From: Naegleria gruberi | Lineage: Eukaryota | Assembly (NCBI GenBank): GCA_000004985.1 | Contig: GG738913.1 | Reading direction: 5' to 3' (one strand) | Length of the DNA: 64,000 nucleotides | Part shown: positions 1 through 59,724 of the stretch, in pieces | Numbering within the stretch: the first letter of the stretch is position 1 | Layout: each line of letters begins with the position of its first letter | Made by a program: the position numbers and the translations under genes | The notes under the pieces: model-generated | Seen by the model: the letters and a program-made list of their open reading frames with translations, nothing else | What the model was told of the DNA's origin: nothing | Database searches by the model: none

Positions 1-1481
1 AAAATAATTTAATTAATTTATTAGAAAGAGATTTTAAACAAATAGAAGATTTACCTATAAATATTAAAATTATACCTGAATGTAAATATTCATATGGAAC
101 TAGTATTATTGTAATTCAATTAAAAATATTAAATTTTATTAAAAATATTAAAAATAATGAAATGATTAAATTTATTCCATATTTATTAAAACAATTTAAT
201 AATTTAATTGATAAAAATGTAAATAAAAATGTAAATATAGAACAAGTTAGATTACAAATACTAAGATCAATAATTTCAATTTTGGAATTAAATTCTACTA
301 TTATAGATATTAATAATATTTTAAATTTATTATTTAATTATTATAATTTAATGTTAAAAAATGAAAAGATTTATTTTTTTATTTTAATTGATAAAATATT
401 AAATTTAAATTATATTCCAAATATGGAAATTACTATAAAAATGTTTGAATCATTTATAAATGATTTAAAAAATGAAAATGATTTAATTTTTCCAATTAAT
501 AATTTAATTTCAATTTCTTCTATTGAATTATATAAAAATATAAAAAATATAATTATAAATTTATTTAAAAATGAAATTCCAATTAAATTTATTATTTTAT
601 TATTTGAAAAAGATTTTAATTATTTTAAAGAAATGATAAAAAATGAAATTGAAATTTTAACAAGAATATTAAATTATTTAAATGATTTAACAATAACAGA
701 TTTAGTAAATGAAACATTTATATTAAATAATTATCTATATATAGTAAAAATATTTGATAATATACCAATTAATGAAGAATTATTTAATTCAATTAATAAT
801 ATAATTAATATTTTACCAAAAACATTTCGTAGTTGTGTAATTGAAAATAATTGTATAGTACCATATTTAGAATGGTTAATTAAATTATATAATACTAAAA
901 AATTATATAATTATTCAATTGAATGTAAAAATGATATTACAATAACATTAGTATCATATTTAATTAATATGATATTAGATACCTATTGTTTAGAAATGTC
1001 TTATTTATTACATACTATTTTAATAATTGATATTTGTAATGAAGAAAATCCAAATTCATTATCTATTTTATTATCAAGAATTAATGAATTATCAAAAGAT
1101 TTATCTTGTATTGAATTGAGATGTTTAACATGTATGATTATTTATCCATATTGTTCTGATTTTTTATGTGATAAATTTGCATTTCTTAATTGTCAATTCA
1201 TTGAATTATTAAATATTAATGATTTTAGATTGGATTGGTTGATTTATTATTCTCTATCTTTTATTAGAGTTTTAGATGATTTAATGGAGAGAAGTAAATT
1301 TTGTAAAAGTAGAGTTTTTACAATTTTTGAATATTTGGAAAAATTATTTACTATAATATCATCATCAACAACATTATCAATGAATATGATGGATACAAAA
1401 TCATATCATGAAATTATTAGATTTAAAAGAAAATTAAATATTTATTTGGAGGAAAGTAATAGAGAAGAGATGATTTTATAA
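1..1481 (+). CDS. Hypothetical protein, 5'-truncated at the window edge. Extremely AT-rich ORF giving an I/N/L/K-rich helical-looking protein.
   Basis: The reading frame is open from base 3 through the TAA at 1479-1481 (more than 490 codons) in roughly 12% GC DNA. An ORF that long without stop codons cannot arise by chance at this composition. No recognisable domain. Confidence 0.45.
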   Translation, partial: NNLINLLERDFKQIEDLPINIKIIPECKYSYGTSIIVIQLKILNFIKNIKNNEMIKFIPYLLKQFNNLIDKNVNKNVNIEQVRLQILRSIISILELNSTIIDINNILNLLFNYYNLMLKNEKIYFFILIDKILNLNYIPNMEITIKMFESFINDLKNENDLIFPINNLISISSIELYKNIKNIIINLFKNEIPIKFIILLFEKDFNYFKEMIKNEIEILTRILNYLNDLTITDLVNETFILNNYLYIVKIFDNIPINEELFNSINNIINILPKTFRSCVIENNCIVPYLEWLIKLYNTKKLYNYSIECKNDITITLVSYLINMILDTYCLEMSYLLHTILIIDICNEENPNSLSILLSRINELSKDLSCIELRCLTCMIIYPYCSDFLCDKFAFLNCQFIELLNINDFRLDWLIYYSLSFIRVLDDLMERSKFCKSRVFTIFEYLEKLFTIISSSTTLSMNMMDTKSYHEIIRFKRKLNIYLEESNREEMIL

Positions 1482-2435: not shown

Positions 2436-3083
2436 TTAAAAACATACCATTCCAAATAAAATAATAAAAGGTAACCAAGTTTTCAATAGACCACTCATAC
2501 CATTAACATATTTACCATAAAAAAACATTAAAAATCCAATTTCAAATATAGAAATATTTCCATTTTTAAATTTCAATTGATTTAAACAATGTATAGTATA
2601 ATGATGACAATTCTGACAAAAGAAATTATACATTTTAGATCTAAAACATTTAGCACTACTCTTAATAGTTTGATCATAGTTTTTTAATTGTTCTTGATTT
2701 AATTGATTTTTAATATTTAAATATCGAGTTGGTTTTCCAAATGCAAAATCATCAATACTAATATAATAGGGTCCTGCAAAATCATGAATTATACCTTTTG
2801 AATTAGCAATACCCATATGTCCAATAAATGGTAATATCCATGTTATTAATGGTATTGGTGTCCATACAATACAATAGGGATATCTATCTATTGATGGATT
2901 TATTATTTCATTATTATTATTATTATTATTATTATTGTTATTATTATCATGTTCATATTGTTGTTGTTGTTGTTCATAATCATCATCATCATCATGTTCA
3001 TTATTCATATAATCATCCGAATCATCATTGTGATGATGTGTTGATTGAATAATTTCCTCCTCCGAGTCATCATATTGTTGCAT
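2436..3083 (-). CDS. TMEM222-like (DUF778) membrane protein with an H/D/Q/N-rich N-terminus, including a 12xN run.
   Basis: The motif HMGIANSKGIIHDFAGPYYISIDDFAFGKPTRYL matches the DUF778/TMEM222 core. A-rich context lies upstream of the ATG. Appears single-exon. Confidence 0.65.
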   Translation of the reverse strand: MQQYDDSEEEIIQSTHHHNDDSDDYMNNEHDDDDDYEQQQQQYEHDNNNNNNNNNNNNEIINPSIDRYPYCIVWTPIPLITWILPFIGHMGIANSKGIIHDFAGPYYISIDDFAFGKPTRYLNIKNQLNQEQLKNYDQTIKSSAKCFRSKMYNFFCQNCHHYTIHCLNQLKFKNGNISIFEIGFLMFFYGKYVNGMSGLLKTWLPFIILFGMVCF

Positions 3084-3298
3084 TTTTTTTAATATTTTAA
3101 TTTATATAACTTTCTTATTAGATATCTGATTTGCTTGTCAATTTGTTTCAAACAAGACAAAATTTAGAGATTTATGCCATTAGGAGAATGTTCATGCACA
3201 TGATCACATAGATCATAATTTTTTAATTTGTAACCAAAATATCAACTTGATTTATTCAGCAGATTTATAATTCCATGTTTCATAATAAAATGGTCCAT

Positions 3299-4110: not shown

Positions 4111-7100
4111 TTACAAATTTAAATGTTGTTTTTGAATATTAATATAATGAGTGTATGGATTAACAGAAAGAGAATCCAAAGTTAATTTTCTATCCTTTAA
4201 ATCCTTCATACATTTAACATATAAATTAAAAACTTCATAATTATTGAATAAATGTTTGTCATAATTAATTGCCTTTCTTCTAATTAAATAATGTTGTTGT
4301 AAAAGTTTTTGATTATGATCTGGGAATGGAACATCAATAATTAAATCAATTTCACTTCCAATTTTACGTAAAATTTCAGATTCTTCTTCAAGTTTCAATT
4401 GAGATGCTAAACAAATACCATTAAATCTCATTAAAGATGTAGCAGATGACGTAGCAGATAATTCTTGTTGATCAATGAGTGGAACATATTGTTGTAATTG
4501 TAAAGTATGATATTTAACATTTGGTAATTGTTGAGATAATTTCTCACCAACATATGGAGTAACATAAATTGTAAATCTCAAATGTTGATATAAAATATAA
4601 ATGGATTGTAAAATATGATTAATTAAATCCATATTTGTACGTGTTGAATGTGGGAATGAAGCAATTAAAACTGATTTTCTATCTGTATCTATATTTGGTA
4701 AATTAGGGAAGGCACTCATCATTCCTTTTAAGAAGGCATCTCTAACTGTTTGTCCAAAACATGCTACTTCACCTGTACTTGCCATTTCAACTCCCAACTT
4801 TGGATCACAATCTAATAATCTTCTAAATGAAAACATTGGAGCTTTACATCCATAGAATGATTTGGAAAATCTCTTTCTTTGAATAATTTCAAATTCTTTT
4901 GTAATAATACTATCTATCATTATCATCAGTTTTACCATTACTATTATTTTGTAATGATGATGTATTAGAATGTGTAATGGATTCAACTTGTTCACGTTTC
5001 ATTGTAATTTGTTCAAGTAAATTCATTTGTTGATAATAATTTCTAGTTGGAACATTACTACCTGGTAAGCTTGTGATGGTATTTGAATTGACCAATGATG
5101 ATGCTAATGATGAAGAAGAAGATGGTAAATTGAAATGATGAGTAAAGATTCTAGTAGCCAATGCAATAAAATCCAAATCTAAAGTCTTACTAATGAATGG
5201 GAATGATCTACTTGCTCTCAAATTACATTCAATAACACGTAATCTCTTTGATAATTTCAAATATAAAGATTCAGATTCAAAACTATCATCATATCCATCT
5301 AGTGAATTTGTTGAGAATGATTGAGTCATTCCTTGTTGTTGTCCATGTTCTTCTTCTTCTTCTTGATCATCATCATGAATACATTCATTATCAAATAAGA
5401 ATTGCATATTAAATGGACCACTAATTGATAAAGATTTAACAATCATTGATGCCTTTTCTCTAATTAAATCTTGAATATCAAAACTCAATGAATAAGGTGG
5501 ACAAATTAGAGTAGCATCACCAGAGTGAGTACCTGCTCTTTCAACATGTTCACTAATTGCATCAATAATAATTTCACCATTCATTGCAACACCATCAATT
5601 TCAATTTCTTTAGCATTTTCATAAAATTTAGAAATGACAACTGGATGTTCTTTAGAAACGTCAGCAGCCATATATAATTGTTGTAATAATTCAGAATCTG
5701 AATAAGCAACATTCATTGCAGCACCTGATAAAACATATGAAGGTCTAATTAAAACAGGATATTGAACCTTATTAGCAAAAATTAAAGCATCTTCAATAGT
5801 AATTAAATTAGCCCATTCAGGTTGATAAACCAATTTGTCACCTGTCTTTTCATTAACAAGTGAATCTAAGAGTTGTGAAAATTTAGAACGATCTTCACAT
5901 TTATCAATTGAATCTGAACTAGTTCCTAAAATTTTAACATGACATTGTTTATCCAAAGGTAAAACAATATTATTAGGTTGTTGACCACCAACACTAACAA
6001 TAACACCTTGTGAATGTTCCAATTCATAAATATCTAAAACTCTTTCTAAACTTAATTCTTCAAAATATAAACGATCAGGTTCATCATAATCAGTTGAAAC
6101 AGTTTCAGGATTATAATTAATCATTATAGTCTTGTAATTTAATCTCTTCAATTCTCTAACACTCATCACACCACAATAATCAAATTCAACACTACTACCA
6201 ATTCTATAAACACCACTTCCTAATACAATTATACCTTCATCATTAAATGAAACATCATGATGATAACAATGATCTGGATAAATCATTTCACCTCCTTCCT
6301 TTCCAATACTATTAATACCTGCATTATAGGTTGTATAGAGATAATTTGTTTGTGCTGGATATTCTGCTGCTAATGTATCAATTTGTTTAACAATTGGTTC
6401 AATCTTATATTGATACTTTCTAATAAATCTAACCATTAATTCTTTATCAATCTTACTTAATTTAGGTGGATTTTTATAGGTATCTTTATATTGTGGTTGA
6501 GTATTATTAGTATTATTATTAGTAGTATTATTAGTATTATCAGTAGTAGTATTATTACTATTATTATTAGTATTAGTATTATTATTGAAACATGATAATT
6601 GATATGGGAATTGAACTTGATTCTTTAAAATTGCTTGTAAAAATTCATGATATAACAATGAAGGTAAACTTGAAGCAATTTGTAAATCAGAGAAACCTTG
6701 TTGTTTGGAAAGTAAAAGTAATGGATATGGAAGTTCAGGTAATGAATTCAATAATTTACCAATTCCAACCAATGCCTTCTTAGTTTGAATAATATTTTGT
6801 AATTTGTACAAGAACCAACGATCAATTTGAGTAAATTGATGAATTTGGTCAACTGTCATTTCAAAATGTTCCATAGCAAGTGAAATAGCAAAGATACGTT
6901 GATCAGTTGGATGAGTTAATTCTCTAATAATCTTTTGTTTGATATCTTCTTTTGGTGAAACTTGTGGTTGTAAAGCAAATGGATTAGTGACACTACTATT
7001 AAATAAGTGAGAATGAGAACTAGATCCAAAACTACCATAATGAGTTTGACCAAAGCTTCCAAAATGAGTAGAACCAGATCCAAAACTACCATAATTAGTA

Positions 7101-10100
7101 TTAGCAGAACCAACACTATTATGAGATGAACCAGAGTGATGGTGATATTGATACTGTTGATGGTGATGTTGGTGATGATTTGAAGAAGCAGTAGTAGTAT
7201 TAGTATTAGCAGCAGTATTAGAAGAAGAAGAATATTGTTTCATCAACTTTTCCAAATCAAATGAAGAATTGGCAGAATCAAATCCTCTATATGAAGTATC
7301 AACCATTCTAATAGCTTTTTGAATTGCTTCTTCAAAATTTCTACCAATGGCCATCACTTCACCAACACTTTTCATTGCTGATCCAATGACAGTTGAAACA
7401 CGAGTGAATTTCTTCAAATCCCAACGTGGCATTTTAACAACACAATAATCTAATGCAGGTTCAAAACAAGCAATAGTTTCCTTAGTAACAGAATTCTTAA
7501 TATCAATCAATTCCATTCCCAATGAAAGTTTAGCAGCAACAAATGCAAGTGGATAACCAGTTGCTTTTGAAGCCAAAGCTGAACTTCTTGATAAACGAGC
7601 ATTAACTTCAATGATAACATATTCCTTACTGTATGGATTCAATGCATATTGAATATTACATTCACCAACAATACCCAAATGTCTAATAACCTTAATAGCA
7701 GCAGTTCTCAACATGTGATATTCATCATTATTTAATGTTTGTGATGGTGCAACAACAATTGATTCACCTGTATGAATACCAACTGGATCAAAGTTTTCCA
7801 TATTACAAACTGTAATACAATTATCATTACAATCACGAACAACTTCATATTCAACTTCTTTCCATCCCTTAACTGATTTTTCAACAAGAATTTGAGGTGA
7901 ACTTGAAAGTGCTTGAGTTGCCAATTCTCTCAATTCACGTTCATCATTGGCAAATCCACTTCCTAATCCACCCAATGCAAATGCTGCTCTAATAATTACT
8001 GGATAACCAATGTGAGAGGCTGCTAAAATTGCCTCTTCAACATTATCACATGCCTTTGAATCAGCAATTGGTTGTGAAATTTCACGCATCTTTTGATTGA
8101 AAATATCACGATCTTCAGTATCAATAATTGATTGAACAGGTGTACCTAATACTCTACAATTCAATTCTTCTAAAACTCCTGATTTGTGTAATTGAACACC
8201 ACAATTTAATGCAGTTTGACCACCAAATGATAAAAGTAAACCATCTGCATTCTCCTTCTTAATGACTTTTTCAACAAAATCAGGTGTAACTGCCCCGAAA
8301 TAAACTCTATCAGCCAATTCTTTACATGTTTGAACTGTAGCAATATTTGGATTAACTAAAATTGTATAAATTCCTTCTTCTTTAAGTGCTTTAATAGCTT
8401 GTGATCCTGAATAATCAAATTCACCTGCTTGACCAATTTGTAAACCACCTGAACCTAAAATAATAACCTTCTTTGGTAATACCTTCTTCTTTTCATCAAG
8501 AGTTGAGAGTTTCTTTTCTTCTTGAATAATTGATTGATTAAAAATACTCTTCTTCATTAAAGATTCTTGTTGTTTTAAAATTGGAGTTGAAATATCTGAA
8601 GTATCTTCAACAGATTTCAATAATTGATTGAATTTAGTTTTCATATTCTTATGATGTTTGATAAATACTTTGCTATATTTAGATTCAAAATTTTTAACAC
8701 GATGTAACTTGTTTGAAATCTTTAATTTGATCAAATCAATAAATTGATCAAATAAAAAGAAAGTATCACTTGGTCCACCTTTAGCTTCTGGATGAAATTG
8801 AGCTGTAAAAATTGGTAAATTCAAACAATAAACACCTTCATTAGATTGATCATTGGCATTAATGAAATATGGTTTGAAATTTGAAGGTAAAGTTTGATTA
8901 TCAATAGCATAACCATGATTTTGTGAAGTGATAAAACATTTACGTGTTAATTGATCAATAACAGGTTGATTATGACCTCTATTACCAAATGGTAATTTAT
9001 AAACACTTGCACCAATAGCTTTACCAACCAATTGATTACCTAAACAAATACCAAAAATAGGAATAATTGGAACTTGTTGTTGTTGTTGAACTAATGAAAT
9101 ATATTCAGATAAAATTGAAATAGTTTCATGGAAATTATTTGGATTACCAGGTCCATTACTAATAAAAATACCATCAATATTAGTATTATTAGTATTATTA
9201 GTATTATTATTATTAGTATTATTATCATTGTTGGTATTATTATTGTTTGAATTATTAACATCTAATTCTAACCAATTATAATTATATGGAACAACTTTCA
9301 ATTCAACATCTCTTTTAACAAGTTCACGAATAATATTATATTTCATACCACAATCAATAGCAATAACTTTAAACTTATTACCTTTACCATAAATAGTAAC
9401 ATCTTTACAAGTTACTTTCTTAATAATTTCAACATCTTGACCTGGATCATACCATTGTAAAGGAGCAAGACCTTTAATAGAAAGTTCATGTTCATAATTA
9501 ATATTTGTAACAATTCTTGCTAACATTGATTTTTCATCTCTCAATTTCTTTGTAATTGCTCTCGTATCAATGTGATATAGAGCTGGAATATTATATTCTT
9601 GTAACCAACGATGAAGTGAACAAATTGCTTCATAATGTGAATAATTATGTGAATAATCTTGAACTATTAAACCTCTAATATGAATCTTATCACTTTCTAA
9701 TTTTGGAAGCAATCCAAATTCATCTAAATTCTTATTACCATTATTAGAAACTGTTGTTTTGAAATTTGGTGCACCATAATTACCAACAAGTGGAAAAGTT
9801 AAAACTAAAATTTGACCATGATAAGAAGGATCAGTCAATGATTCAGGATAACCAACCATTGCAGTTGTAAAAACACATTCACCACTCACAGAAAATGGTG
9901 AATTCCAATTGGAATCATTTTCAATTAAACACTTATTAGCTCCAAATAATTTACCATAATATCTTGTACCATCTTGTAATTCTAAATAACCATCAAACAT
10001 ATCAGATGGTGATGGTTGATTATTATTCATCATTTTACCATTATTATTATTATTATTAGGATTAGGAATGGTAGTAGTGGTTGTAGTAGTATTTGTAGCT

Positions 10101-10366
10101 GTAACAAGTGTAGAATTGGATGATGATTCAGATACTGTTGGTGAGGTTGTTTGATTCAGAGAGTTGGAATTTGAATCATCGGACAATAATAAAGAAGCAG
10201 CACTCAATAAACTATTCAATGGATTATTGGTGGTTGAAGCAGAATGACCTGTTACTGCTGCTCCTCCTGTGGTGGTTGTAGAATTGGATGATGGATTGGT
10301 GGTGGTATTAGCCTTATTATTGGCATAAACCATGTAGGATTTGTTAGAAGGTGATGGAGAGTACAT
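4111..10366 (-). CDS. Carbamoyl-phosphate synthetase, glutamine-hydrolysing: fused GATase + large subunit + C-terminal MGS-like domain, with no DHOase/ATCase. N/T-rich insertions. At least two coding segments are joined across 4910-5070.
   Basis: Small-subunit N-domain and GATase signature (FGICLGNQL). Two ATP-grasp halves are present ([22 protein letters not shown] and [21 protein letters not shown]; [17 protein letters not shown]). The STGEV motif is followed by an MGS-like fold in the 4111-4995 frame. The likely start is the ATG at 10366 (aaaaaagaATG). The two ORFs are in different frames. Confidence 0.8.
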
Positions 10367-11491
10367 TCTTTTTTGAATTGACAATTGTTGATTAATGACA
10401 ATGAAAGACAAATACAAACATTTAACTACTGTTTTTCAACAAAATTGTGTATTAGTTTCTAGAGTGTATTGTTTTTAGAGATGCTCAAGAGAAAAAGAAG
10501 TACTTCTCGTGCTCTTTTTTTCGAGAGGGTTTTATCACTCAATCCAACCCTGAGCGAATTTATAGTCCTCAACTACCCACCTAATATCTTCCCAACCATT
10601 GCAATTAGCCTCAACATGTTCATTGAAGAATTGTGCAGCTTTCTTATTTTACATTGTAATCCTGTGTGTGGGAGAAAAGCTAACGTTCGGATTTCAAAGT
10701 GGTGGTCTGAGGTAATTTTTCAAAGGTTCCTCTGCTAAAGAATCCAAGAGCTTGTTTGGAAAAAGAGATGTTAGTTGGTGGGTACCACAAGAACAACATG
10801 AGGTTGGTACATGTGAACGAAAGAGAAATAACCATCATCAGAATGTTTCTCATTAAAAAGAAAATATGAATAAAACAATGTCTATCAATATTGTGGAAGG
10901 AAATGTAGAATTTTGAACTGTTTGTTGAGAAATATATTACCAGAAAAAAACGACATTTTCTATCAAGGGAGGACACCAACAATGATTACAACGGTGATAT
11001 TTAATCGGAAGATAATGGATTAGGCTGACTTTCCTTAAAAATGAGGAGAGTTTATATTTGAACAACTACGATTTTGAAACTCAAACCCTGCATATTACCT
11101 TTGTGATAAGTATGTACTACACTCAGAAGAAGAAATGATAACACTGAGAAGGCCTACGAAAACTCAAACCTAAGGAAAGTACGCTTCAAGCAAGGGAGAC
11201 TATCATTGTAGAACAACTATTTGTAATTGGATCCTTAACTCTCTAATTTCCAACTTATTCTGATATGAATTGACGTTTGTACAAAAGCTAATTACATTCA
11301 CAAAGTATAGTAAGATCCTAACACTGAATTGTAATTCACCAACATGGAGTTGAGTGTGACCAATGTTCCACTGTCAATCATCAATCATTAACCAATAATA
11401 ACTGAATTCAATAACCCAAAATTAAGGCGGGAAACTAAAAATTTACAGTTTATAGACGTTATAAAAATCCTTAGAAAAAAATTTAAAAAAA

Positions 11492-12617
11492 ATGAGCAAA
11501 CATTCAAGCTCTTCTTCATCACTTTCCCATCATTCATCAAGGAATTTATCCCATTCAAGTAGTAGTAGTAATACAAATAATAGTGGAGGGAATTCTTCTG
11601 GGACTGTAAGCTCTAAGGATGAAAATTCTAGTAGGGATGATGTTTATGATGAACAAATGACTGAAAATCCGAACGCTTATTATTGTGCCTTGATTAATAA
11701 GTGGTTGGATCAATATACAACAACAGTTCATAGAAGAGTTTCATCGATAACGGATTGTTCTCCATCACTGTTTATAATTCTATATGAATCCATTAGTAAA
11801 GACAATCCGAATACAAATCCTAAGCAATACCCTAAGTTTATTAGAGACAAGACATTAACTATATCTCAAAATCAATACAATCTGGTGGAATTAATAACAT
11901 ACCTCAAAGAAAAGTACAAACATTCATTCATATTGAGGAATATTGAAATACATAAATTAATAGATAGAGAACCCTATGAAATTATTAAATTCCTTGATTG
12001 GTTTATTCAATTAGAAAAGAAGAGAGTTCATGCCTATATTCCCCAATTGGATGATCCTTCATTCCAATCACAAGAAACACCAAAGGATGAAACCTTCTCA
12101 ATCAAACACAGAAAGAAAATGCTCAAAATTCAGAGAGATAAATTAGAGGAAGAACATAATTCATTCATTCACAAAACAATGATTAATGCACAAGCTAAGG
12201 AAGAATCTCTCATGAGACATTATTTATCACACAGTAATAGAATTGAAAAGGAAAATTTAGTTTTAACTGTAAATAGTTTAAAGAAGAAAGAACGTGATAT
12301 GCAATGTAAATTACAAGATAGAAAGGATTCTATTTCTAATTTGTAAGTTGTGTGATGATGGATTCTAATAATATTTAATCTAAAATGAAAGTTATAAGGA
12401 TCAAATGAATATTATTAGGGATAAGTTAGATTCACAAACTAAGTTAGATAAACATGTTTCAAGACAATTATTCTTGGACTTTGATAGATTACAAAGAGAA
12501 TTTTACACTCACAAACAAAAAGAATTGGAACTTAGAAGATTGAAATACATGTCAAAGAGAGAAAAGGAACAATTTCAAATTCATTCAAAGCTTAAAACCC
12601 TTCTAGATCAAAACTAA
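11492..12617 (+). CDS. Hypothetical coiled-coil protein with a Ser-rich N-terminus; two exons.
   Basis: join(11492..12342,12392..12617). The intron is 49 nt, from GTAAGT at 12343 to AAAG at 12391. The splice joins ...DSISN-FYKDQMNIIRDKL... in frame. Confidence 0.5.
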
Positions 12618-16400: not shown

Positions 16401-17503
16401 TCAAAGTATTTTCAAAACTTACTTTTCTCCATTTGATAATTTTGTAATAATTTCTTTAAGATGAAGTAAACTAAGGTTAATATTTTGACCTTCTCTCTTT
16501 CTATTATAATCTGCTTGTTCACTACTGTTTTCACTACCTGCCAAGTCAACCAAATTAAGATTTCCTATTCTTACAATTTGTTTAGATTTAGCTTTCTTTG
16601 CAAGTGATGATTGTAATTGTTGAGCATTATCCACTGCAAGTTCATCTTTTCTTTCTACAATCATTCTGAAAATAGTGTGTGATCTTGATGAAGCATCATT
16701 TGCTACTGTCTTGGCCACCATAATATGAGAAGTACCTCTAGAAATAATATCCATTGTTTCTTGTTCAGATCTTACAATTTCCTCAGTTAAATGATCGAAT
16801 GACAAGTTTTTCTAATAATATTAAGTTCAATATTCAATCTATTCAAAATATTATTTACATACATTCTTATCAACGAAAATATTTACATATCTTTGCTCTG
16901 GTGATAATAAATCTCTCACTTTTTCATTATAAATTTCCAAATATGAAACTCTGATAAGGAACGTTCTATTTTCTCCTTCCTTAATACACAATAATAAATA
17001 TTGCAATTATAAATTATACTTTAAATTACATACACTATTTTTGATTTGATCAAAAACATCTCGGATTGCCAATCTAATGAGACCTGGTTTATCATTGGTT
17101 CCTTTCATTCTATAGATTTAAATGTATTATTAATCAGAGATTAACAATTTTAAAATCAACCTACGTAAATGTTTTACCTGAGGCTGTTTGTCCATAGGCA
17201 AATGTAGTTACATTGTATCCCTCACAAACAGAAGGAACCATTTCCGAAAGTAATTTGTCATATATATCTTTTGTATTTGATAATTCATCAAAGACAAAAT
17301 CTACAAGAAGGTTTAAGAGAATTAGTAAATTGTTGATACCTACCAAAATTCATTGATTTTGTCAAGGTGGGATCTTGATTTTTCAATTCAATTGAATTTT
17401 CGTTAATATAGAATGGAGGTTCCTTATTTTGCATTTCAAGCAGTTCGTTTGCAATGAATGGACGACATCGGACACAAACTTTGATATTGGTTTGGTTTGT
17501 CAT
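13431..17503 (-). CDS. Kinesin-like protein with an N-terminal motor, a coiled-coil stalk and a tail of about 600 aa rich in S/T/P/N/Q; six exons.
   Basis: join(17503..17344,17300..17165,17109..17034,16979..16887,16811..16423,16383..13431). Motor motifs present: IKVCVRCRP, FAYGQTASGKTFT, VSYLEIYNEKVRDLL, SSRSHTIF, LVDLAGSE, SKLTRILGDSLGG. Introns are 39-75 nt with GTAGGT/GTATGT/GTAAAT/GTAAGT donors and TACTAAT/CTAAT branch points. Confidence 0.8.
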
Positions 17504-33308: not shown

Positions 33309-36300
33309 ATGTTTGGACGTTTCTTTGGTAGTAAAAACAAGGCTGCATCAGCTGATGATGATATTTCTCAAGTTGAAACAACCACAACCACCACTACAAA
33401 TACAACACACCAACCAATGAAGAACAACAACAAGCAGTACACTAAAAAGGAGCCAAAGAATAGTGCTCCAAAGAAAATTGAATTATACGACAATGTAAAG
33501 ATAGTATCGGGAACAAGCATTCCAACAGGATTGGCTGCCAGTAGAGCTACTTGTATCAAGAAGACACCAATCACTGATAATATTCCTACATTCGAATCAA
33601 GTCCTGATTCTTTCATCCATGTACATATTGGAAAGGAATATTCTGACAAGGCTTCATCAGTTTTACCATTGGTGGCTCACAAAGTTCAATGTCACGTCAT
33701 GTATCCTATTGTTCAAGTCGTTTTCCACAATGACTTTTAGAAATACTATTGAAAATAGATCAATTGAAGGTGAATTAGTTCTTCCAATGCCTGAAACTGC
33801 CACGATGACTGGTTATGCAATGGAAGTTGATGGAAAACTCATTGATGCAGTTCCAGTTGAAAAGGAAAAGGCCAAGGAAGTTTTTGAAAGTGAAGTTAGA
33901 GCTGGAAATAAGGTTTCAATGGTTGAAAAGGTTGCACAATCCAATTGTTTCCGTACTCGTATTTATCCATTACCATACAATCAAGATAAGACAATTCAAG
34001 TCAAGTATCAATTAATGTTGAATGAGATTATCGAAACTCAAAATGAAAATGAAACTGGTACAATTAAGGGCACTGCTTGGTTCCCTGTTACTTATACAGA
34101 TTTCTCAGTATTAAGAGAATCCAACATTGAATTTACTTTGAATGAGACATCATTGCAAGGATATGAAACTAATTTTACAATGAAAACTTCAGGAGTTGAA
34201 GAAAAGACTATCTGGTCAAGTAAGAATGCAAGCAAGAGAGCTGCTTATTTCAATGTTACCAAGAGTGATTTATCTGACAAATTGATTGGTTTTGGTATTG
34301 AAATTACCAAACAGGCTGATTCAGTTAATAATATTTTACTTGCATCAGAAAATGGTTACTTTATGACCTCTATCCCAGTTCCATCTTTGACCGAAGAAAT
34401 GAGAAATATGTCTCGTATTGGAGACAAAATTCAAATTGTTTGGGATTCATCACTTTCACAATCTAATTGTCATGCAAAGAATTTACAATTATTCAAGGCA
34501 ATTTTGGAAGCTTTGAATCCAAAAGCAATTTCCTTCTCAACATTCAGTAATGCCATTGTAGATCAAAAGAATTTTTCATCCACTTCAGATGCTTTGAGTT
34601 ATGCTGAAAAGATTGTTTATGATGGTGGTTCTAACATGCTTGTTTTCGATCAAAATTTGATTGATGATAGTTTTGATTATTGCATTGCTTTTACTAATGG
34701 TGTTCACACAATTGGACATGAAATTACCCCATCATGCAGCTTTGAAAGACCAATTTACTTTGTCAACGCCTCATCTACTGTTAATATCAATCTCTTGAAG
34801 CACATCTCTACCAAGTCTGGTGGTGTTTACCTCAATGCCAACGAACTTTCACAAGATCAAATTTTGAATGCTATTGGTAAACCAGTCTTGTCATTTGTTG
34901 TTGCAGATTTCGAAGATTCTGATATGGAAGAAGTTTATCCAAACGAACCAGTTTCTTTGAAGGAAGGAGAAATTTTCAAATTATATGGTAAAATCAAAAA
35001 CTCTGGAAAGGAAACAGCTAAGGTTGCTGTATCTTTCAGATATGGTTCAAAGATTTATCACATTCAAGAACTTGATATTCCAACAAGTGTTAACAATGTT
35101 CCTGAAGAGGCTGCCATTCTTCCAACTTTGTGGGCTCAACAAAAGATTGACTCTCTCTCTGCATTCCCTCAACTTTTCAAGGATGATATTAAGAAGATTG
35201 GCCAAGAATTTAGGATTGTTACTGACAATACTTCCCTGATTGTTCTTGAAACTTTGAGTCAATATCAAAAACATGACATTGTTCCGCCAAAGACTCTCAC
35301 TGAAGTCTATAAACAATTCATGCAAGTAAAGACATCTGCACAAGAAGCTAAGGATAAACAAGAAAAGGAAAAGTTAGAAAGAATTATTAGTATGTGGAAG
35401 GAAAGAGTTAATTGGCATAAGACTGACTTTAAATTACCTGAAGAAAAGCCAGAAAAGGAAAAGAAAAAGTTGGCTGCAATGGATGACTGTATTTCTGAAT
35501 CTCTCTCTGTACAATCCTCTAGTTTGGATAGTTGTTGTAGATGTGAGGAGAGTAGAGAATGTTGCAGAGAATGTTGCAGACGTTCTTGTGCACCATCTCC
35601 AAGTTGTGCTAGAAGTTGTTGTTGTCGTTCTGCTAGTCCTTCTTTGAGTTGTTCAGATATCAGTTCAGGTCCACCACCAGCTTTTGGAAGTGCAGGTAGT
35701 CCACCACCTCCTTCTGCTAAGTCAGTAGCCTCTCAAGAAGAACCTAGTGTTGCTGGTACCATTAAGGTTAAAGCATGGACTCCAGATGCTGCTTATTGTA
35801 CTGCCATTAGTCAAGCTAAAGATCCATATGAAGAATATGTTAAACAAAGAGAAAGTTATAGAGATTCTCCAGCTTTCTATTTGGATGTTGCTGACTATTT
35901 CCTTTCATCAGTTAAGAATAAGGAAATTGGTGTGAGAATTCTTACCAACGTTTCAGAGCTTGAATTGGAAAATGTTCAACTTTATCGTATTGTTGGTTAT
36001 AGACTTGATCAAGCTGAAGAATTGGAATTGGCTGAATGGGTCTTTGAAAGAGTTAAGAGCATTAATGGATTTGAACCTCAATCATACAGAGATCTTGCTC
36101 TAGTTAAGGAAAGAATGGGAAAGCATGAAGAAGCTATGGAATTATTCAATAGAGTTATTGTTGGTAAATGGGATCTTCGTTTTGATGAAATTGAAATGAC
36201 CGTTGCTACAGAGATGAACCATCTTTTGCTTAACAATCCAGATTTACCAATCATTGATAAGAGATTGATTCACAAGTTTGACCTCGATATTCGTATTTCA

Positions 36301-36654
36301 ATGGCCTGGGACACTGATAATGTTGATATTGACTTGCACGTTCAAGAGCCAGGAAGACATGGTGAACATGCTTATTATGCTCACAATAGAACAAGAATGG
36401 GAGGTTATGTTTCCAGAGATTTCAGACAAGGATATGGTCCAGAAGAATACATGTTAAAGAAAGCTCAAAAAGGTGCTTACAAAGCTACAACAAATTATTT
36501 CAGTAACCATTCTCAGAGCTTGACAGGTGGCACAACCATTTTGTGTACCTTCTTTACAAATTATATGAGACCAAATGAACAAAGACAAATGTCAACCATT
36601 AGATTATCTTCACAAAAGCAAGACATTGTCGTTTGTGAAATTGATATTGCTTAA
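33309..36654 (+). CDS. VIT (vault/inter-alpha-trypsin) + vWA domain protein with an internal Cys-rich insert and a DUF2135-like C-terminal domain. A +1 frame discontinuity lies at 33735-33740.
   Basis: The ORF 33309..33740 ends with ...VQVVFHNDF. The ORF 33619..36654 continues RNTIENRSIEGELVLPMPETATMTGYAMEVDG (VIT core), then vWA, then ISMAWDTDNVDIDLHVQEPG... Removing one T from the TTTT run before the TAG joins them as a contiguous VIT domain. Confidence 0.65.
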
Positions 36655-41449: not shown

Positions 41450-42166
41450 TTACATAATTAAGCATTCTTGTTGGCTTTCTTCATTTTCATTGTTTCTTCT
41501 TCCTTGTTGTTGAACTTGTTGTTGTTGATTGGGAGGGTTATTAGTATTGGCAGCTACATACATGGCTCCTAAAGAAACTGCCCCAACAACAGCAAGTGCT
41601 CCCCAGAATGAGCCATTTCCTTGGTTAGTAGTAGTGCTTGTTACAGGTACTTCTGAATCCAATCTTGTTGTTTGCTCAAAATGTTCTGGTTCAATGAGAT
41701 CCTTTGTGTGATCTCTGAGCTCTCCATTTTGGCCATTGTAAACTCCAAATGGTTTGATTGTACCAATCGAATCTGTATCCCATTCAAGAATTTCAGTCAA
41801 ATAGTGAGAGGCATTGTTGCCACATCTCGTAACTTGTTCTCTGAGTTTTTGAAGTTTTCGTTTTTGATTTCTCCAAACCACATCTGGTGAATAGTTAATA
41901 TGCTTTGCTTCCAATGCCAAAATATCAATCTTTCCATCATTACGAAATTTAGCAAGAATTGCATCTCCTTTGTAATGAGAAGGAAGATGATATTCGTATG
42001 CAATTAAATAGTCGTATTTACTTAAAAGAAATGCTTCACATGCTTCTTTTAAGACCTTTGCTTCCTCTCTAACATCAGCTCTTTCATGATGCTCTACATC
42101 ATAATCAAGTTTTTCAGTGCATGTAAAGTGTTGTTGTCTCAAAGTTTGTCTAATAGAGGAGGACAT
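41450..42166 (-). CDS. Hypothetical tail-anchored protein with a PD-(D/E)xK-nuclease-like core.
   Basis: GDAILAKFRNDGKIDILALEAKH fits a D...E-x-K motif. A single C-terminal transmembrane helix (FWGALAVVGAVSLGAMYVAA) precedes a Q/N-rich end. Confidence 0.35.
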   Translation of the reverse strand: MSSSIRQTLRQQHFTCTEKLDYDVEHHERADVREEAKVLKEACEAFLLSKYDYLIAYEYHLPSHYKGDAILAKFRNDGKIDILALEAKHINYSPDVVWRNQKRKLQKLREQVTRCGNNASHYLTEILEWDTDSIGTIKPFGVYNGQNGELRDHTKDLIEPEHFEQTTRLDSEVPVTSTTTNQGNGSFWGALAVVGAVSLGAMYVAANTNNPPNQQQQVQQQGRRNNENEESQQECLIM

Positions 42167-59471: not shown

Positions 59472-59724
59472 NNNNNNNNNNNNNNNNNNNNNNNNNNNNN
59501 NNNNNNNNNNNNNNNNNNNNNNNNNNNNNNNNNNNNNNNNNNNNNNNNNNNNNNNNNNNNNNNNNNNNNNNNNNNNNNNNNNNNNNNNNNNNNNNNNNNN
59601 NNNNNNNNNNNNNNNNNNNNNNNNNNNNNNNNNNNNNNNNNNNNNNNNNNNNNNNNNNNNNNNNNNNNNNNNNNNNNNNNNNNNNNNNNNNNNNNNNNNN
59701 NNNNNNNNNNNNNNNNNNNNNNNN
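59472..59724. other. Assembly gap (a run of 253 N).
   Basis: Literal n characters in the sequence. Not biological. Confidence 0.95.

Follow-up and report, generated by a model that had tools for sequence, protein, structure and literature searches.

Programmed +1 ribosomal frameshifting is known from AAA-UAA/UAG sites in Euplotes, from UCC-UGA-U in antizyme and from CUU-AGG-C in Ty1, and a stimulatory element is not required at all +1 sites. Among the matches listed in a literature search, no paper dealt with programmed frameshifting in Naegleria nuclear genes. The N. gruberi NEG-M assembly was Sanger-sequenced and comprises 40.9 Mb at 35% GC, and Naegleria is described as, for the most part, a heterozygous diploid (PMC9928731). 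Curation of Naegleria and its relatives has brought up similar frameshift discrepancies among genomes, transcripts and reads, which were repaired manually (bioRxiv 10.64898/2026.08.18.745565).

The window analysed here is a stretch of 64,000 nucleotides from N. gruberi contig GG738913.1 (assembly GCA_000004985.1), and all positions refer to it unless another locus is named. An earlier note on this DNA had described a +1 frame break in a gene with a VIT domain, had placed it at a TTT-TAG sequence and had drawn a parallel to a CPSase gene in the same window. Here we locate the frame switch by homology and weigh a surplus base, in the deposited sequence or in the genome, against ribosomal frameshifting and splicing.

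Results

Two overlapping frames encode one VIT-DUF2135 protein

In the ORF listing of the window, a frame 0 ORF at 33309..33740 on the plus strand (143 aa), which ends in VQVVFHNDF followed by TAG, is overlapped by a frame +1 ORF at 33619..36654 on the same strand (1011 aa). When the two frames are joined, a single VIT-DUF2135 protein of approximately 1114 aa results. The 5' part of this gene occupies 33309..33722 (plus strand, frame 0, from ATG to GTC GTT) and codes for residues 1-138, with an N-terminal motif MFG.FFGSKNK..DD.SQ and the first VIT strands, SDKASSVLPLVAHKVQCHVMYPIVQVV. This interval is without annotation in GenBank, and its N-terminus and VIT strands align with sequences from N. 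fowleri, N. lovaniensis, Willaertia and metagenomic relatives. The 3' part, at 33724..36654 (plus strand, frame +1), runs from TCC ACA ATG, the start of STMTFRN, to a TAA stop codon and encodes the remainder of the VIT domain, a middle region, a TPR-like region and a C-terminal DUF2135/YfaP_C domain.

After deletion of one T from the T run described below, the corrected protein matched Pfam VIT (PF08487) with 88.8 bits over profile positions 2-111 and DUF2135/YfaP_C (PF09906) with 39.2 bits, both above the Pfam gathering cut-offs of 26.5 and 22 bits, respectively. With the frame +1 ORF alone, the VIT match starts at profile position 22. Both frames are needed to cover the profile from position 2 on, and the frame break inside the VIT domain is therefore real. 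The interruption described in the earlier note is thereby borne out, the two ORFs lying in different frames and the VIT domain being complete only when they are joined, and so is its proposal that removal of one T restores a contiguous protein.

At ~35480-35660 (residues ~725-785) the protein carries a Cys/Arg/Ser-rich low-complexity insert that begins with CCRCEESRECCRECCRRSCAPSPSCARSCCCRS and precedes a Pro-rich stretch. In relatives, the corresponding position is taken by Cys-rich inserts which differ from that of N. gruberi, and an ENA contig of a near-identical organism (P0135, P0136) shows frame changes within the Cys-rich insert.

The deposited gene model begins downstream of the break

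The deposited CDS (EFC37865.1, XP_002670609.1, D2VZ14, NAEGRDRAFT_53384) was identified by an exact-sequence match and covers 33730..36654 on the plus strand, coding for 974 aa. Its first residue is the Met of STMTF (ATG 33730; MTFRNTIEN...), the first in-frame ATG past the break. As it starts at this internal ATG, the gene model has been cut at the frame break, and it is without the first 140 residues of the protein, part of the VIT domain among them. Against an HMM built from the relatives, EFC37865.1 scored 303.4 bits and the T-run-corrected model 409.9 bits.

The protein collection contained no exact counterpart of the 143-aa ORF, the 1011-aa ORF or the corrected 1114-aa protein. A protein search with the corrected N-terminus gave nothing above 55% identity in a set from which the window's own cluster was seemingly left out (its representative P0134 was absent). 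A DNA pattern allowing either TTT or TTTT at the site had 0 matches in JGI metagenomes, and a protein-guided metagenome scan recovered no relatives.

Of ten ORF products taken from across the window, seven are identical to N. gruberi proteins (EFC378xx-EFC379xx, XP_0026706xx) on a 236,320-bp scaffold of the NEG-M assembly, and a GC content of ~30-36% in the window is in line with the 35% of that assembly. Elsewhere in the window, a run of 253 N at 59472-59724 represents a scaffold gap. The GC content is 17% in positions 1-2000, as against 26-36% in the rest of the window, and an ORF at 162..1481, within the 17% GC part, was not matched exactly by any entry of the protein collection.

Homology places the frame junction in a T run

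Eight relatives were used for comparison: two paralogues from N. fowleri, one protein each from N. lovaniensis and Willaertia magna, three ENA metagenome proteins and one protein from a Logan assembly. Identity to the closest homologues was 53-62% (seven heterolobosean homologues at 90-100% query coverage). All eight heterolobosean relatives are uninterrupted through the site, five loci having been checked at the DNA level, and all eight can be aligned ungapped as H V (M/T) Y P (I/L) (V/I) Q V (V/L/I) S T M T F (R/C/K). In the N. gruberi window, YPIVQVV is encoded in frame 0 and S-T-M-T-F-R-N follows directly after it in frame +1, which puts the switch at GTC GTT [T] TCC. Frame 0 reading past VQVV gives FHNDF, which matches no relative. 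The true frame junction is therefore a run of four T with one surplus T, G-TTTT-CC, at 33721..33724 on the plus strand, 14 nt upstream of TTT-TAG.

At the DNA level, the window reads GTC GTT T TCC ACA ATG ACT TTT AGA AAT. The relatives read GTT GTT TCG ACC ATG ACT TTC CGT AAT or GTG GTT TCT ACC ATG ACA TTT TGT AAT, and further relatives GTG CTG TCG ACC ATG ACC TTT AGA AAT or GTC GTA TCA ACC ATG ACT TTT AGA AAT. Two of them thus have three T at the site (GTT TCG and GTT TCT) where the window has four. Deletion of one T at 33721-33724 yields VQVVSTMTFRN and the 409.9 bits with the profile from the eight relatives. A junction between TTT and TAG was tried as an alternative and rejected: it scored 394.7 bits with the relatives' HMM, 15 bits below the T run, and 84.3 compared to 88.8 bits with Pfam VIT, and frame +1 already encodes STMTF there, which is invariant in 8/8 relatives.

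These results revise several details of the earlier note. The VIT segment had been read through to VQVVFHNDF and the TAG; the frame 0 ORF does end in this way, but FHNDF is unconserved and all eight relatives have STMTF instead. The shift point, proposed to be TTT-TAG, is placed by homology at GTT-T-TCC in the T4 run at 33721-33724, and the T4 run given as 33734-33737 was found on checking to be 33735-33738. Likewise, the zero-frame codon that follows the shift point is TTC, a common sense codon, and not the TAG that had been claimed.

The TAG lies within a conserved Phe-Arg pair

The TAG at 33738..33740 (plus strand) is the first frame 0 stop past the insertion and lies five sense codons downstream of the junction. 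In the true frame its bases belong to TTT AGA (Phe-Arg), within the conserved ACT TTT AGA (T-F-R), and N. fowleri has an identical ACT TTT AGA AAT in frame. When the window's own genes were read in the shifted frame, the median distance to the first stop was 4 codons, and at 58% of positions a stop came no later than the fifth codon; a stop five codons past a 1-nt insertion is no more than would be expected by chance. The TAG is incidental and belongs to no signal. A zero-frame stop is only the end of an interval that is open in both frames, and the shift may be anywhere inside that interval. A stop-codon-linked frameshift inferred from overlapping frames is an artefact unless homology puts the junction at the stop.

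As regards the stop codons of the window, 11 of the 12 CDS ends that were checked are TAA, the exception being the TAG of the CPSase model, which is truncated. Within this sample of 12 gene ends, TAG appears to be uncommon as a genuine stop.

The overlapping frames of the CPSase gene

The CPSase gene is carried by two minus-strand ORFs in different frames, 4910..10417 and 4111..4995, which overlap over 86 nt at 4910-4995. Homology to human CPS1 ends with ...ALATRIF (CPS1 residue 1272) in ORF 4910..10417 and resumes with DSIITKEF... (CPS1 residue 1275) in ORF 4111..4995. Between these CPS1-like parts lie 77 non-conserved codons, open in frame 0 to a TAG at 4912-4910. The deposited CPSase, EFC37906.1 (1818 aa), ends at this TAG (4910-4912), so that this model is also truncated; the conserved CPS C-terminal region (CKAPMFSF... 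and ~200 aa after it) is found in the next frame and is missing from EFC37906.1. None of four candidate downstream CPSase models was found in the protein collection, and word-index and representative-library searches for a close CPSase orthologue at the junction returned distant CPSases only.

Two candidate introns, of 145 and 148 nt, have the non-consensus donors GTAATG and GTAGTA. A 1-nt insertion or deletion at any point of the overlap, such as the A4 of GGTAAAACT, would also explain the break, and so would the tandem GATA-GATA that adjoins the TAG.

A second N. gruberi copy and intron-like intervals in relatives

A second copy of part of this region is present in the assembly on an N. gruberi scaffold of 23,652 bp, which matches the window at ~34900-36654 and 41450-42166 with ~98% protein identity (EFC36049.1, EFC36044.1). 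This copy may be allelic or duplicated, and is probably the alternative haplotype. The EFC36049.1 model spans the C-terminal ~570 residues only and stops short of the T-run site. Several ENA/Logan contigs match the variant of the second copy and not that of the window.

Likely introns in the window begin with GTAAGT (donors at 12343, 23444 and 61148, and at 16422 on the minus strand). Short apparent introns were also seen in the 3' half of the relatives' copies, where they split the DUF2135 region, and prokaryote-style gene calls therefore cut the protein there. These intron-like intervals (~5911-5961 in locus L001; ~4845-4905 and 4990-5045 in locus L002) start with GTAAGTAT and are ~50-60 nt long; in one example, GTAAGTAT...TTAG separates IGGY from VSRDF. 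In the N. fowleri copy (L005), the open frame is broken at ~3070-3106 and ~4570-4640. Between 33724 and 36654 the N. gruberi gene is one open frame free of interruptions, and the implication is that introns were lost or gained within the genus.

Discussion

The frame break would be accounted for by an ordinary, non-programmed insertion of 1 nt, the deposited NEG-M sequence having one T too many at 33721-33724 relative to an ancestral GTT TCN. We regard it as highly probable that the extra T is either an error or a real allele, i.e. that no recoding of any kind takes place. That the Sanger draft contains a base-calling or consensus error, which we infer with a probability of about 0.5, is our main reading, and in that case the real gene would be one ORF of ~1114 codons coding for a normally read VIT-DUF2135 protein. 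The ORFs on both sides are undamaged and sequence conservation extends over the 138 codons upstream, which indicates that the lesion is either very recent or not real. The CPSase gene, 28 kb away and also truncated at an overlap of two frames, would conform to the pattern expected from occasional consensus indels in a draft. What counts against an error is that Sanger consensus errors are uncommon at short homopolymers such as T4, and by our own estimate of the base rates, an indel in the consensus of a Sanger draft is about as likely as a frameshift carried heterozygously by a clonal diploid. The extra T may also be considered, with somewhat less than even confidence, as a real 1-bp insertion in NEG-M, present on one haplotype or fixed in the clonal strain. 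The copy would then be a very recent loss-of-function allele or a young pseudogene, from which at best a 143-aa fragment or, with ATG 33730 as the start, a protein shortened at its N-terminus would be made, and the other allele or paralogues would supply the function. The position of the junction and the one-base excess fit such an allele just as well, heterozygous frameshifts are possible in a long-cultured clonal strain, and two paralogues of the family exist in N. fowleri. Moreover, the second NEG-M copy at ~98% protein identity on the 23.6-kb scaffold, together with the mainly heterozygous diploidy described for Naegleria (PMC9928731), makes a real frameshift on one haplotype nearly as plausible as an error. 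It has to be reconciled with the lack of decay on either side of the junction: upstream of it, 138 conserved codons form an open frame, whereas at ~34% GC random frames close within a few codons. The annotated product, in addition, is without the first ~20 VIT profile positions, and such a truncated product would be unlikely to fold normally.

By comparison, programmed +1 ribosomal frameshifting at GUU-U or UUU-UAG, which would yield the full-length protein from the deposited sequence, is very unlikely. Such a shift would accord with two intact ORFs in a gene that would be functional only if its frames are joined, with a second gene in the window, the CPSase gene, that also has a +1 overlap ending in TAG, and with the rarity of TAG as a genuine stop (11/12 checked ends are TAA). 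However, the zero-frame A-site codon is TTC, a sense codon that is not rare in the window's genes (16.1 per 1000), the P site is occupied by GTT (40 per 1000), and a tRNA-Val slipping from GUU to UUU would lose its first-position pair. A shift at UUU-UAG would give FHNDF where 8/8 relatives have STMTF, at a penalty of 15 bits, and the break is found in no relative, the sequence being continuous in 8/8. The downstream 120 nt gave no sign of a stimulatory RNA structure (-20.5 kcal/mol; z = -0.58 compared to shuffled sequences), the site had no relevant match to an Rfam frameshift element, and GUU-U-UCC does not match CUU-AGG-C, GCG-AGU-U, UCC-UGA-U or AAA-UAR. Nothing at the junction suggests a recoding signature, and there is very little chance that TTTT is genuine in both DNA and mRNA and that the full-length protein is made by a +1 shift at GUU-U-UCC. 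A TAG-linked mechanism receives no independent support from the CPSase gene, as both frames of this gene are open over 86 nt and the stop tells only where the overlap ends; the parallel drawn in the earlier note does not hold in this respect. Least probable of all is a short spliceosomal intron that bridges the frames. A phase-compatible GT..AG interval with a good-looking TTTTAG end does exist, the 40-nt GTATCC...TTTTAG at 33701-33740, although the earlier note had stated that there was no intervening GT..AG, but its removal would take away MYPIVQVVSTMTFR, which is conserved in all relatives. This candidate was rejected with 349.0 bits against the relatives' HMM, 61 bits below the T-run model, and 76.9 compared to 88.8 bits against Pfam VIT. 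Enumeration of all 297 phase-compatible GT..AG intervals gave none that joins VQVV to STMTF, because only one base is in surplus. The region of the frame break contains no GTAAGT donor, whereas the intron-like intervals of the relatives do begin with GTAAGT. The earlier note was fair in naming an assembly error as the alternative that would overturn its reading, and an error in the Sanger draft is the explanation that we prefer.

For annotation, the consequence of this preferred reading is that dropping one T at 33721-33724 rebuilds the NAEGRDRAFT_53384 protein. If the T4 run is real, it would mark a recent loss-of-function allele in NEG-M, which is of minor interest. Programmed shifting, if true and if the CPSase gene behaved alike, would be without precedent as a programmed +1 shift in nuclear genes of Heterolobosea, and its site would resemble no known motif; the predicted trans-frame peptide would be VQCHVMYPIVQVVSTMTFR for a shift in the T run and VQCHVMYPIVQVVFHNDFR for a shift at the TAG.

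In domain content, the protein resembles the VIT-DUF2135 proteins of Bacteroidota (Chryseobacterium, Pedobacter), with which it shares the N-terminal VIT domain, the TPR-like region and the C-terminal DUF2135 domain; the heterolobosean proteins differ in having an additional N-terminal extension and the Cys-rich low-complexity insert. Beyond Heterolobosea, the nearest named relatives come from bacteria, for the most part Bacteroidota (Chryseobacterium, Pedobacter, Azobacteroides), with 27-31% identity over ~87% of the length, a pattern that would fit an ancient bacterial source of the heterolobosean family. This likeness identifies the gene and tells nothing about the frame break. With the +1 sites of Euplotes, antizyme and Ty1, the N. 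gruberi break has in common the +1 direction, and a zero-frame TAG lies close downstream. It differs from them in that its junction lies five codons 5' of the TAG, that a common sense codon fills the A site, that the P-site tRNA is unable to re-pair and that the break is unconserved in relatives. Homopolymer indels of draft assemblies and allele-specific frameshifts, on the other hand, present the same surplus base in a mononucleotide run, the same intact overlapping ORFs, the same uninterrupted orthologues and the same truncation of the gene model to the first in-frame ATG, and their anatomy is without any difference from that of the N. gruberi break.
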